Positions 1 through 5,998 of a stretch of DNA of 13,353 nt are shown in pieces. The first letter of the stretch is position 1, and each line of letters starts with the position of its first letter. This stretch comes from a virus (Duplodnaviria > Heunggongvirae > Uroviricota > Caudoviricetes): IMG/VR virus record IMGVR_UViG_3300017987_000047; one strand, given 5' to 3'. The notes beneath the pieces are model-generated. The model was given only the letters and a program-made list of their open reading frames with translations, was not told the DNA's origin and made no database searches. Made by a program: the position numbers and the translations under genes.

Positions 1-2
1 GA

Positions 3-410
3 GATTGGGTTAAAGACCGTATACAGAGAACAGATCAAAGATATGATGTGATTGAAGGAACTACCCGAGAGATTCCAGAAGAACATATATATGTCCTAGG
101 AGAGGTTAATATCTCAGTTGAAAAGTTAAGCTCCTTAAATAGAAAAGTTGTCTATTGTGAATGGCTCGATTGTTCTAACAACCGATTAGAATCCCTTCCA
201 GAACTTCCAGTCTGTAAAATACTTTTTTGTTGGAATAATCGCCTAACCCAACTTCCAGAGCTTCCCGCCTGTAAGATACTTTATTGTTCCAACAACCTAT
301 TGACCCAACTTCCAGATCTTCCAAAATGTAGAGATCCTTATTGCACAGAAAATCCAGGATATCCATTCAAAGCAAAACGACAACCAATATCTATACAGTA
401 CAGCTCCTAA
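3..410 (+). CDS. Cys-rich 19-aa LRR protein, copy 1 (5'-truncated by the window edge)
   Basis: Frame is open from position 3 (DWVKDRIQRTDQRYDVIEG...) and matches the N-terminal domain of the downstream LRR paralogues. Three CxxLxCxxNxLxxLPxLPx repeats plus the cap C-x-D-x-x-C-x-x-NPGYPF. Confidence 0.9.
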   Translation, partial: DWVKDRIQRTDQRYDVIEGTTREIPEEHIYVLGEVNISVEKLSSLNRKVVYCEWLDCSNNRLESLPELPVCKILFCWNNRLTQLPELPACKILYCSNNLLTQLPDLPKCRDPYCTENPGYPFKAKRQPISIQYSS

Positions 411-444
411 ATCAAAATTCATGGAAAAGAGGTAGCAAAGTAAA

Positions 445-717
445 ATGAAAGACTCCTCTTTACAAAATCGAGCTTTTTGTGTCACCCTTTCTGGGGTACC
501 TGTGGAAGTATTACTGCTCAAGGACTCTATGATTCATTTGTCAAGGTTAGGTAAATCATATCCCAAAGAGGTAAGAGATTTCTATATTACGGTTATTTCA
601 GATTATCAAAAGCGAAACGAGAATGTCCCCGAAATACCAATTAAATCCCTCTTGACTCATGTGAATCCCCAAGTACGAGAGGTAGCAAAGGATATCTTAA
701 GTGGACAAGAAATTTGA
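445..717 (+). CDS. Small hypothetical protein with C-terminal LLTH tag (family A, divergent)
   Basis: 90-aa ORF ending EIPIKSLLTHVNPQVREVAKDIL. N-terminal NRAF resembles NRVF/NKVF/NRAF in other family members. Confidence 0.8.
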   Translation: MKDSSLQNRAFCVTLSGVPVEVLLLKDSMIHLSRLGKSYPKEVRDFYITVISDYQKRNENVPEIPIKSLLTHVNPQVREVAKDILSGQEI

Positions 718-961
718 TAATAGAGTATTTAGATTTGAGATGCCGAATTCAGAAAGATTCTGGGTTTGGTTTTTGGAAAATCCCGGTCCCGGTTTTTTGT
801 TCTTCACCGAAACCCGCTTTGATACCTACTGGTGGCATTATGAGGTTCGGGAAGAATATAAAAGATATCCACTTAAAACTGAAATACCAATTGAATCCCT
901 CTTAACCTTTGAGAATCCGGAAGTTAGAAAAAAAGCAAAAGAGTTTCTGAAGGACTCCTAA
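701..961 (+). CDS. Small hypothetical protein with C-terminal LLTH tag (family A)
   Basis: GTG start overlapping the upstream gene. NRVFRF...WFLE...FTETRF is shared with 4471-4725 and 4173-4484. Ends EIPIESLLTFENPEVRKKAKEFL. Confidence 0.85.
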   Translation: MDKKFDNRVFRFEMPNSERFWVWFLENPGPGFLFFTETRFDTYWWHYEVREEYKRYPLKTEIPIESLLTFENPEVRKKAKEFLKDS

Positions 962-997
962 CCAAGAAATCTTAGAACTGATCAATTAGGAATCGTC

Positions 998-1874
998 TTG
1001 AATAAACATCTTTCTAAATATTTAACCTCAGAAAATCAAAATCTTAGAAACTGGGTTAAATCTAGAATAAATCGAATCGATCAAGTCTTTGAAGTGATTA
1101 AAGGAGATATCGATTCCAGAAGAGAATCAATATGTCTGTGGAGCGGTTTGGATTTCAAGTCAAAACTTAAAATCATTAGGATTTAAGGTTATTTATTGCG
1201 AGGAACTCTATTGCGATAATAACAGATTGACTAAACTTCCAGAACTTCCTGTTTGTAAAAAACTTTGGTGTTATATTAATGAATTAAGGTCTCTTCCAGA
1301 TCTCCCAGTCTGTAAAAATCTTAATTGTCAAGATAATGAATTGACCGAACTTCCAGACCTGCCAGTTTGTGAGACATTTTATTGCAGCAATAATCGATTG
1401 ACTAGCCTTCCAGACCTGCCAGTCTATAAATATCTTTCTTGTAATAATAACAGATTGACTAAACTTCCAGAACTTCCTGTCTGTGAGTATCTTTATTGCA
1501 GCAATAACCAATTGACTAAACTTCCAGACTTACCCGTCTGTGAAGATCTTTATTGTGCTAATAATAAGTTGACTGAACTTCCAGATCTCCCAGTCTGTAA
1601 AGATCTTAGTTGTGCTAATAATAAGTTGACTAAACTTCCAGATCTCCCAGTCTGTGAAAAACTTTGGTGCAGCACTAATCAATTAACTGAACTTCCAGAC
1701 TTACCAGTCTGTGAAAAACTTTGGTGCAGCAATAACCAATTAACTGAACTTCCAGACTTACCAGTCTGTGAAGATCTTTCTTGTAATAAGAACAGATTGA
1801 CAAAACTTCCAAACTTCCCAGTATGTGAAGATCTTAGTTGTGAAGATAATCCAGGATACCCATTCAATGAATAG
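998..1874 (+). pseudogene. Cys-rich 19-aa LRR protein, copy 2, split by a frameshift near 1112
   Basis: 998-1111 encodes the conserved N-terminal domain (HLSKYLTSENQNLRNWVKSRI...KGDI). From 1113 the next frame continues IPEENQYVCGAVWISSQNLKSL... into 11 full repeats plus the cap. The paralogue reads 'atc gat tat att cca' whereas this copy reads 'atc g att cca', a 5-nt loss. Confidence 0.85.
1197..1860 (+). repeat. 57-bp (19-codon) tandem repeat array encoding the LRR units of copy 2
   Basis: Identical blocks 57 nt apart: ccagtctgtgaaaaactttggtgcagca at 1647 and 1704; caattaactgaacttccagacttaccagtctgtgaa at 1680 and 1737. Confidence 0.95.
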
Positions 1875-4484: not shown

Positions 4485-4725
4485 GCTAGAGCGGACTAAT
4501 AAGGTATTTAGATTCGACTTACACTCAATCGTTTTCGCTTGGTTTTTGGAAGGCCCTGTTTATATTCTTTTCACAGATACTTATTTTCAGGCTCACAGAT
4601 ACGAAGATCGTGGAAATTGGCTAGCCCCCTCGGCCGAAATACCGATTAGGTCTCTCTTAACTCATGCGAATCCTCTAATTAGAGCGAAAGCAAAGGAGAT
4701 GTTAGCTAAAGATGGGACTATTTAA
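4471..4725 (+). CDS. Small hypothetical protein with C-terminal LLTH tag (family A)
   Basis: Closest to 701-961 (NKVFRF...WFLEGP...FTDTYF); ends EIPIRSLLTHANPLIRAKAKEML. GGAGG RBS inside the upstream gene. Confidence 0.88.
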   Translation: MARPKLERTNKVFRFDLHSIVFAWFLEGPVYILFTDTYFQAHRYEDRGNWLAPSAEIPIRSLLTHANPLIRAKAKEMLAKDGTI

Positions 4726-5146
4726 GATGCATTATTACTTGATTACATTTTCGGAAATCTTTTATCCTTATCTTTCTTTAATGGCTAGTTGTGAGCGGAC
4801 TCGGATAGAATACAAGCCGGTTCCTCTCTCTACGAAATTTGAGATAAAGGGGAAGGACATTAAATTATTGCTTGTTAAGTTATTGGGTTCTAGGGGGGAT
4901 TTAAGGGAGATTCTGGACATAGAGGCTGAGATATTGGAATCTTCTAAATTCTCAAATACTTACGATTATACTACTAATCTTAGGGCGACTCTTAAGGATG
5001 TGCGGGGGGAAAGGGTTAATTTAGTTTTTGAATGTAAGGTTCTCTCGGTAGCTAAGTTTGAGGAGAATTTGGTACCGGAATCTCTCTTAACTCATGAGAA
5101 TCCTTCAATTAGGGACTATATTAAGAAGAATAGGAAAAAGTTTTAA
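4712..5146 (+). CDS. Hypothetical protein with C-terminal LLTH tag (body unrelated to families A and B)
   Basis: 144-aa ORF ending VPESLLTHENPSIRDYIKK; an alternative start at ATG 4727 is possible. Confidence 0.8.
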   Translation: MGLFKMHYYLITFSEIFYPYLSLMASCERTRIEYKPVPLSTKFEIKGKDIKLLLVKLLGSRGDLREILDIEAEILESSKFSNTYDYTTNLRATLKDVRGERVNLVFECKVLSVAKFEENLVPESLLTHENPSIRDYIKKNRKKF

Positions 5147-5476
5147 GTGAAGAAACGCTTACTCAAGAAAAGGGTATTAGATTCTTTGTTGAATCGGGCT
5201 TTTATACGTTCTTTTGGTGGGGGAAAGGATCTTTTCATATTCTTGGGCTCTTTTATTCTCTGGCATAAAACTCGATTTTGGATTAAGTCTGATTTTGAAC
5301 ATCTTGCGGTTCTTAAGATAGAGGGGGAAGCTTGTTATGACTGGGGAAAGATGATTTTCTATTGGGATGCTTCTGATGATCTAGTAAGTATCTCAGAGGT
5401 TCCGATTAAATCTCTCTTAACCTTTAGGAATAAAGAGGTTAGGGAAAAGGTGAAGGAGATTCTATGCAAAGATTAA
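5147..5476 (+). CDS. Small hypothetical protein with C-terminal LLTH tag (family A, divergent)
   Basis: GTG immediately after the upstream TAA. LLNRAF near the N-terminus; ends EVPIKSLLTFRNKEVREKVKEIL. Confidence 0.82.
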   Translation: MKKRLLKKRVLDSLLNRAFIRSFGGGKDLFIFLGSFILWHKTRFWIKSDFEHLAVLKIEGEACYDWGKMIFYWDASDDLVSISEVPIKSLLTFRNKEVREKVKEILCKD

Positions 5477-5580
5477 CTCTTTTGATGATTTTTGAGCTGT
5501 CTTTTGAGGCAAAACACCGGAATATTTTTGTCTTTTTCAAACCTCAAAGATCTCTACGTCCTTGAAAGATATGGACTTAG

Positions 5581-5599
5581 ATAAAGATTAACCGGTTTT
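5581..5599 (+). promoter_or_regulatory. Second copy of the class II motif ATAAAGATTAACCGGTTTT
   Basis: Exact 19-bp match to 4144-4162; lies in the intergenic gap before 5651. Confidence 0.6.
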
Positions 5600-5650
5600 A
5601 AGGTTTTTGGATGCTTAGAATTTTCTGACATACCTCTAATAGGTGGAGAT

Positions 5651-5998
5651 ATGTATAAAGTTACATTTACAAACACTCAAACTGTTGCGCTTCGTGACTA
5701 TTATTTTGAGAAGAAACCTGATGCTAATGCTAGGTTGGGTGCTGGCTTGGAGTATCTTGAATACTTATTATCTGGGGGTGGAAGTTTCTGGTCTCAAGCG
5801 ATGGTGAATGCTAAATACTTACGTTTTGTTGAGAAGCAAAAGGGTAATTGTGGTTATTTACTTATTTACATGGGGGTTTCTTGTGAGCTCCTTCTTACTT
5901 ATGAGGTTTGTAAATTAAGGATTGCTCGATCTCCGGAATCTTTCTATACATCTAAGTGGTCTGGGATACGTAAGTTTGTGAAGGAGAGGTTGGGTTAG
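5651..5998 (+). CDS. Hypothetical protein with degenerate C-terminal tag (family B)
   Basis: Paralogue of 3164-3511; GGTGGAG RBS; ends PESFYTSKWSGIRKFVKERL. Confidence 0.85.
   Translation: MYKVTFTNTQTVALRDYYFEKKPDANARLGAGLEYLEYLLSGGGSFWSQAMVNAKYLRFVEKQKGNCGYLLIYMGVSCELLLTYEVCKLRIARSPESFYTSKWSGIRKFVKERLG

Follow-up and report, generated by a model that had tools for sequence, protein, structure and literature searches.

The stretch of DNA analyzed here, IMG/VR virus record IMGVR_UViG_3300017987_000047 (13,353 nucleotides, the whole of which we call the window), comes from an uncultured giant (huge) bacteriophage. Over its first 5,998 positions it carries an array of genes whose products share one short sequence of about 22 residues, the tag, with the consensus [IL]-[EK]-x-h-L-T-[HS]-x-[NSD]-P-x-[IVL]-R-x-x-[AV]-K-x-x-[LI]. 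The window is placed at approximately 191,084-204,436 in a JGI metagenome contig of 227.8 kb, and near-identical copies are also found in two others, 335 kb and 384 kb long. A copy in ENA (locus L002) differs from the window by one mismatch in 12,403 overlapping bases. The sequencing runs that hold the stretch are sediment and seawater metagenomes from several studies.

The genes are small, co-directional and tightly packed. The original prediction, made from the sequence alone, had twelve tagged genes clustered at positions 1-5998, and this is what we find: eleven with a complete tag and one whose tag is cut by the edge of the window, all on the plus strand and each in the gene to which it had been assigned. 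The array reads as follows.

1-410, plus strand: leucine-rich repeat (LRR) protein copy 1, cut at its 5' end, with the real start 48 nucleotides upstream of the window; N-terminal tag MNKHLIKYLTHKSESLRDWVKD.
445-717, plus strand: 90-residue protein; C-terminal tag PIKSLLTHVNPQVREVAKDIL, encoded at 634-702; orthologue on the related contig L004 (396-656).
701-961, plus strand: family A protein of 86 residues; C-terminal tag at 884-952.
998-1874, plus strand: LRR protein copy 2, split by a frameshift; N-terminal tag at 1004-1072.
1867-2403, plus strand: LRR protein copy 3, 178 residues; N-terminal tag at 1873-1941; LPX-type LRR at residues 52-172.
2400-2789, plus strand: LRR protein copy 4, short (129 residues); N-terminal tag at 2412-2480.
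2817-3140, plus strand: 107-residue protein within the array, with no recognizable tag.
3164-3511, plus strand: family B protein of 115 residues; C-terminal tag at 3431-3499.
4161-4484, plus strand: family A protein; C-terminal tag at 4404-4472; the database form has 103 residues (P0007), with its ATG at 4173.
4471-4725, plus strand: family A protein of 84 residues; C-terminal tag at 4639-4707; modeled with AlphaFold2.
4712-5146, plus strand: 144-residue protein; C-terminal tag at 5069-5137; orthologues in two related lineages.
5147-5476, plus strand: 109-residue protein, possibly a distant family A member; C-terminal tag at 5399-5467.
5651-5998, plus strand: family B protein of 115 residues; C-terminal tag at 5927-5995; the final tagged gene of the array.

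For LRR copy 1, positions 1-20 encode the tail RDWVKD; the preceding sequence, in locus L001, extends it to MNKHLIKYLTHKSESLRDWVKD. The other tags are recovered by a loose regular expression applied to all six frames, which gives 11 full motifs, all on the plus strand between 634 and 5995; the codons of their invariant threonine start at 655, 905, 1025, 1894, 2433, 3452, 4425, 4660, 5090, 5420 and 5948. A hidden Markov model (HMM) built from these 11 tags scores them at 31.7-39.1 bits, the rest of the window reaching at most 5 bits. A second, non-circular HMM was built from 27 tags, all located upstream of the window. Its top 11 matches are the window's 11 tags (9.0-23.9 bits), the next real match has 3.6 bits, and the maximum over 50 shuffled controls is 9.8 bits, with none at 10 bits or above. 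The remark that no tag occurs after 6 kb is likewise correct: in the HMM scan of the window, none of the 21 open reading frames (ORFs) beyond position 6000 is tagged.

The tagged array extends far upstream of the window, which contains just its downstream end. Walking upstream through loci L001-L003 and L014, and counting a tag at 9 bits or more, we found 44 tags across 29.5 kb (window coordinates -23,560 to +5,948), with a single tag stretch per ORF; 33 are C-terminal, 8 are N-terminal and 3 are placed otherwise. Of the 57 ORFs in the 24 kb ending at position 6000, about 37 have a tag. The distance from the invariant threonine to the stop is 13-27 residues, mostly 17-22, in C-terminal tags, and the same threonine is residue 5-11 in N-terminal ones. 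Within the window, the tag is C-terminal on small proteins and N-terminal on LRR proteins, as had been noticed, and both termini are thus in use. Upstream non-LRR proteins that open with the tag include a 105-residue coiled coil (MKAYLTNKIPEIRRLAKRL), a 115-residue protein (MNIKKFLTDKHPEKRKLAKL) and a 110-residue protein. The stricter statement that the tag is always at a terminus holds within the window and fails upstream of it, where the 3 remaining tags either lie inside the protein or precede a tail of 35-130 residues. In a 220-residue protein at L003 6355-7017 (window approximately -11741 to -11079), the tag NIKKLLTHRTCLREFAKHAI is internal, at about residues 82-101. Fusion of a C-tagged gene with its downstream neighbor would be expected to give such a protein, and is a mechanism by which N-terminal and internal tags may plausibly have arisen.

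Conservation within the tag is restricted to a few positions. In a set of 59 tags, taken from this phage and from related ones, the threonine is present in 59, a consequence of the criterion by which the tags were collected, the arginine in 58, the leucine before the threonine in 57 and the lysine in 52. Counting from the threonine, positions -2, +6, +10 and +14 are hydrophobic; the remaining and flanking positions are near random. An exchange of the arginine for lysine is found in 0 of the 59 tags.

In the AlphaFold2 models of both proteins that were folded, the tag forms a short helix (helix A), a loop of 3-4 residues and a helix of 10-14 residues (helix B). In the LRR protein the two helices cover residues 3-9 and 14-23, with a predicted local distance difference test score (pLDDT) of 67-79 in a model with a mean of 84.5. 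In the 84-residue family A protein they cover residues 59-64 and 68-81, with a pLDDT of 88-93 in a model with a mean of 81.9 and a predicted template modeling score of 0.67. Helix A has about 6 residues, and helix B is strongly basic (VRKKAKEFLK, IRRLAKRLA). In its register, LL-T-x-x-N-P-x-V-R-x-x-A-x-x-x-L, the tag matches the hairpin (H2-H3) of an ARM/HEAT repeat. The best match of the tag profile in the PDB is the designed armadillo repeat OR329 (4hxt), at KLLTSTDSEVQKEAQRAL, with a weak E value of 0.005. The second-best match, to TYLTHDSPSVRK in the zinc-finger region of U1 snRNP protein C (E = 0.055), is probably a coincidence. The likeness to one HEAT-repeat hairpin that had been recognized from the sequence is consequently borne out by the register and by the modeled helix-loop-helix, as resemblance and not as membership: HEAT/ARM Pfam families gave 0 matches at E ≤ 1 for 10 tagged proteins, and 0-1 of 26 C-terminal segments matched per family at E ≤ 10. 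The ESM Atlas, queried with the tag alone, returned no usable match.

When the tags are stripped off, BLASTP and jackhmmer sort the bodies into 7 small families and 41 singletons; a permutation Z-score gives 31 singletons out of 57 and enlarges family B to 7 members at lenient cutoffs. Those of the window comprise the LRR proteins, family A (701, 4161 and 4471), family B (3164 and 5651), the 4712 protein and the singletons 445 and 5147, and a known fold is matched by the LRR body only. Family A is modeled by AlphaFold2 as a five-strand β-meander followed by the hairpin. Searches with this model gave no fold assignment (VIA Z at most 4.2, Foldseek E at least 0.16, Atlas TM at most 0.59 over short stretches). 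The LRR solenoid and the β-meander differ as models, which puts the tag on at least two bodies of clearly different modeled secondary structure. The earlier count of at least four unrelated bodies is upheld at the level of sequence; structurally, it is these two that have been modeled with differing secondary structure.

The N-tagged bodies of the window are true LRR domains of the LPX type found in YopM, IpaH and SspH. With LRR copy 3 as the query, phmmer matched residues 52-172 to YopM (E = 2.3e-35), SspH2 (1e-19) and IpaH3 (1e-16), and no matched stretch starts before query residue 49. The VIA structure alignments, which mostly span model residues 26-178, give Z-scores of 17.8 for SspH1 (root mean square deviation, 2.7 over 152 residues), 17.4 for IpaH3 and 17.2 for YopM, at 31-35% identity; Pfam LRR_4 matches an LRR copy at 6e-9. 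Both sequence and structure alignments leave the tag outside the homologous LRR region, and five LPX-LRR paralogues bear it. The LPX-LRR domain is not known to require such a hairpin in its solved relatives. The LRR proteins end 5-10 residues past their last repeat, so that there is no space for a NEL ligase domain. Copy 2 is broken by a frameshift near 1112-1120, where VIKGDID in one frame gives way to IPEENQYVCGAVWISSQNLKSL in the next; its pieces are 998-1186 and the LRR part, which runs in the other frame to 1874. Since L002 differs from the window at a single base, a sequencing error looks unlikely, and copy 2 could be a pseudogene, a tagged 62-residue stub followed by an untagged LRR protein or a case of programmed frameshifting.

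A HMMER search with family A, run in full against 1.84 billion representative sequences, found 7 further members (E values from 7e-16 to 5e-8), located on short contigs of related phages, and 7 of 7 end in KSLLT[FHY]xNxx[VI]Rxx[AV]K. One related contig, L004 (7.25 kb), shows synteny with the window: its tagged genes are followed by the gene for a zinc-ribbon membrane protein and then by one for a protein with an NYN domain. It carries 11-12 C-terminal tags. Identity between it and the window is 89% for the NYN protein, 40-80% for the tags and 27-52% for the tagged bodies. The number of family A copies varies between lineages, from 3 to 5. This variation and divergence indicate that the array is a fast-evolving region of gene birth and death, of which the tag is the conserved element.

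Outside this group of phages, the searches were negative. GenBank phages gave no match by blastn, and IMG/VR yielded nothing, whether searched by protein or with a degenerate tag pattern of 39 bits. A scan of JGI metagenomes for the 4712 family found just the two known relatives, and word-indexed protein searches with the LRR N terminus, with family B and with an alignment of the C-terminal 64 residues returned only proteins of the same phage or near-identical variants. Among the tagged, untagged and upstream proteins, Pfam and PHROGs had nothing informative except LRR_4 and NYN, and full-text searches of the literature found no description of such a tag. In keeping with the suspicion that this is not a described system, the tag is absent from GenBank phages, IMG/VR, Pfam and PHROGs to the extent that these were searched.

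We interpret the tag as a portable handle for protein-protein docking, and give this interpretation a probability of about one-half. The strongest support comes from the LRR proteins, where the module has been moved onto, and kept on, a YopM-like domain outside of which it lies. Its retention at the opposite terminus of three other bodies also favors a handle, as do the invariance of its polar residues and the fact that the tag is more conserved than the body. The original prediction spoke of a portable, orientation-independent docking signal. The parts that stand are portability, use at either terminus, attachment to bodies unrelated in sequence and selection on the peptide; docking itself is the part to which our estimate applies. 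Under a docking mechanism, the array would consist of small, fast-evolving accessory genes of a huge phage, each product with one hairpin module. The hydrophobic stripe formed by positions +6, +10 and +14, beside the invariant threonine, Arg +7 and Lys +11, would make up a contact surface for one common partner, encoded by the phage or by the host. The variable body would provide target specificity or cargo, the available bodies being LPX-LRR solenoids, a small β-sheet domain, a coiled coil and many orphans.

We infer both the existence and the identity of that partner. Two candidate mechanisms seem to us the best. By analogy with known systems, the tagged proteins may be loaded into the capsid for ejection together with the DNA, a route that we consider possible but doubtful. 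Again by analogy, they may be interchangeable binders docked to a protease or another hub in the manner of F-box adaptors, which is just as tentative. The boldest proposal, that some 45-80 genes of one phage carry an address label for one phage machine, most attractively the procapsid, is likewise speculative and rather unlikely as it stands. The phage would load dozens of varied small binders, YopM/IpaH-like LRR proteins among them, and eject them along with its DNA as a ready-made set of effectors, or else would dock them all to a single protease or hub as exchangeable substrate receptors. An untagged 330-residue protein was considered and dropped as an obvious solenoid receptor, nothing found speaking for or against it; the ESM Atlas's own models of this protein and of the 144-residue one are poor (pLDDT 0.40).

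Several observations weigh against a handle and support the main alternative, in which the hairpin would be a structural element inherited by descent: a self-capping stabilizer of small, rapidly diverging domains and the sole recognizable remnant of one hyper-diverged paralogue family, fused a few times to N termini and lacking any common partner. We regard this alternative as a real, if lesser, possibility. The family A model, a compact domain of 84 residues, has its highest confidence in the hairpin, which may there simply be a piece of the fold. Many of the C-tagged bodies of 105-155 residues have an N-terminal strand, a helix with P-x-x-E and a final strand before the tag, and the similarity between body families is slightly above that of controls (mean Z of 0.28 versus about 0), with family B growing at lenient cutoffs as noted above. 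Given these loose common features and the slight excess, several of the bodies counted as unrelated may be one very old family, and the C-tagged 105-155-residue proteins may share a very old origin. The distance from threonine to stop is very uniform, as for homologous C termini, and tandem duplication drives the array, as the copies of family A illustrate. The consensus fits structural positions of ARM/HEAT repeats, with the designed armadillo as its best PDB match, and the invariant arginine coincides with the signature arginine that serves a structural purpose in HEAT repeats. Even in the LRR proteins, a capping role for the tag may be envisaged from the models, since in 2 of the 50 VIA alignments listed its helices are superposed on the N-terminal part of IpaH LRR domains.

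What argues against descent alone is, above all, the five LPX-LRR paralogues, on which the module was acquired and kept although it is no part of their YopM-like domain, together with its N-terminal retention on three other bodies. In addition, the polar residues are invariant, with no Arg-to-Lys change in 59 tags, while the flanks randomize, and between lineages the tags are better conserved than the bodies. The original prediction would have been undermined if the motif had been an integral helix of one shared fold. For the LRR proteins this is not the case, the tag being outside the domain; for the small proteins it stays a live explanation.

Two further alternatives to the docking interpretation were considered. 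Hairpins of different tagged proteins might pack on one another, or on the end of a solenoid, and so build mixed complexes. The ARM/HEAT-like consensus includes the arginine that bonds the neighboring repeat in HEAT proteins, and a lone hairpin would leave its hydrophobic stripe exposed; helix A, however, is too short to sustain a stable stack of repeats, and we hold such homotypic stacking to be improbable. We think similarly little of the idea that helix B, rich in arginine and lysine, is a basic amphipathic anchor to phage DNA, RNA or membrane. Terminal amphipathic helices are indeed known as portable anchors of this kind, but they preserve charge and amphipathicity rather than a fixed L-T...R...K register without Arg-to-Lys exchange, and no helix-turn-helix or membrane-targeting family was matched in Pfam. 

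Finally, the motif might reflect a constraint on the nucleotides, as a ribosome-binding site or a site of recombination or gene conversion, the peptide being incidental; on the following evidence this is highly improbable. In three window genes the Lys-Glu/Asp codons near the end of the tag read AAGGAG or AAGGAT (4458-4463, 4693-4698 and 688-693), 7-13 nucleotides before the next start, and the end of the tag doubles as the Shine-Dalgarno sequence of the next gene. Such a word occurs, however, in 8 of 27 C-terminal tags, with correct spacing in just 3 of these, and in 0 of 10 N-terminal or internal tags, which nonetheless retain the motif; an origin of the motif in translational coupling was rejected on these counts. 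The six "SLLT" tags of the window show 113 of 180 synonymous codon matches versus 61 expected. In family A the excess is nearly the same in tags (59%) and bodies (47%), as expected from the common ancestry of recent tandem duplicates. Over all tags, codon identity at identical residues is at expectation (1922 observed, 1816 expected), and genome-wide homogenization of the tags at the DNA level was dropped as an explanation. Codon identity at expectation and the small number of Shine-Dalgarno cases indicate that the motif is no ribosome-binding or recombination signal; as judged from the codons, selection is on the peptide and not on DNA or ribosome-binding sites.

That a short terminal module can address varied cargo to a single partner is established, with F-box and PRANC domains, encapsulin and microcompartment peptides, P22 scaffolding protein and the capsid-targeting sequence (CTS) of phage T4 as examples. 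The principle is already known, and the tag described here is new to the searches above. The T4 CTS is exclusively N-terminal, about 10 residues long and unstructured, and is cut off by the prohead protease after L/I-x-E. Like the tag, it is a short terminal peptide common to small proteins that are otherwise unrelated and whose genes lie in a hypervariable part of a large phage genome. In contrast, the tag is C-terminal in 33 of 44 cases, has about 22 residues and is modeled as an ordered hairpin, and thus seems unlike a flexible, linear signal of the CTS kind. No conserved cleavage site is apparent beside it in the tag alignments: position -4 is glutamate in 20 and lysine in 22 of the 59 tags, and a fixed L/I-x-E motif is not seen.

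The basic C-terminal helix-loop-helix of P22 scaffolding protein and the encapsulin and microcompartment peptides carry fused cargo into a shell, and the latter two may occupy either end of a protein. They resemble the tag as small terminal helical modules, but no sequence similarity with it was detected, and they are absent from the PDB matches of the tag profile. The F-box (about 45 residues, three helices, Skp1 binding) is N-terminal on LRR proteins and PRANC is C-terminal on ankyrin proteins, reminiscent of a helical module that is N-terminal on LRR proteins and C-terminal on other bodies; these, too, are expanded and fast-evolving families of binders. The tag differs in having two helices and about 22 residues, and no F-box or PRANC match was obtained in Pfam. 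No such hub is known from bacteria or phages.

Two further comparisons concern the hairpin and the bodies. With ARM/HEAT repeats, the tag shares the hydrophobic and capping register LL-x-x-x-[DN]-P-x-V-R-x-x-A-x-x-x-L and the modeled helix-loop-helix. Unlike in those solenoids, it is single in each protein instead of being arrayed in three or more copies, its threonine and lysine are invariant, its helix A is very short and it has no significant Pfam profile match. With the LPX-LRR effectors YopM, IpaH, SspH1/2 and SlrP, the four LRR proteins of the window share homologous bodies with the same 20-residue repeat. The phage proteins, however, are short (129-215 residues), have cysteine at fixed repeat positions and lack a NEL domain; the N-terminal regions of the effectors are unmatched in them, and they open with the tag instead.

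The surroundings of the array have features of their own. GC content is 35-39% over the tagged genes and 50-54% beyond about 7 kb, the abrupt step from about 37% falling at 6500-8000, with the gene for the 231-residue NYN protein on the GC-rich side. Downstream of the array, amid small ORFs, are three tRNA genes: Met-CAT at 8605-8680, Lys-TTT at 10341-10413 and Met-CAT at 10586-10659. Small untagged zinc-ribbon proteins of the CxxC...CxxC type are encoded at 6021-6455, 6748-7086, 8711-8926, 9470-9919, 11364-11579 and 12622-12873. Those at 6748-7086 and 12622-12873 are paralogues, and the one at 6021-6455 also has transmembrane helices and is 49% identical to its counterpart on L004. The array itself is interrupted at 3512-4160 by 650 nucleotides without a convincing ORF, whereas L004 has no similar gap between tagged genes. 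A scan for sigma-70 promoters and terminators found them at background level only. Upstream, at L002 1603-2169 (window approximately -6531 to -5965), an untagged 188-residue cysteine peptidase of the transglutaminase-core/CEPT76 type is embedded in the array. Its signal- or lipoprotein-like leader indicates that it probably acts outside the cytoplasm, and it was dropped as a candidate tag protease.

The small orphan genes of huge phages number in the hundreds, and annotating each of them separately is not feasible. If the handle is truly shared, dozens of these orphans would act through one partner, whose identity would give a large "dark" block of the genome a mode of action. The N-tagged LPX-LRR proteins link the system to a class otherwise known as injected bacterial effectors, a link that makes an effector or anti-defense role plausible. 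If its receptor were found, a module of 22 residues that functions at either end of a protein would in addition make a useful fusion tag. Should the reading as an address label be true, the array would represent a single, previously undescribed recognition system based on a helix hairpin and working at either terminus.

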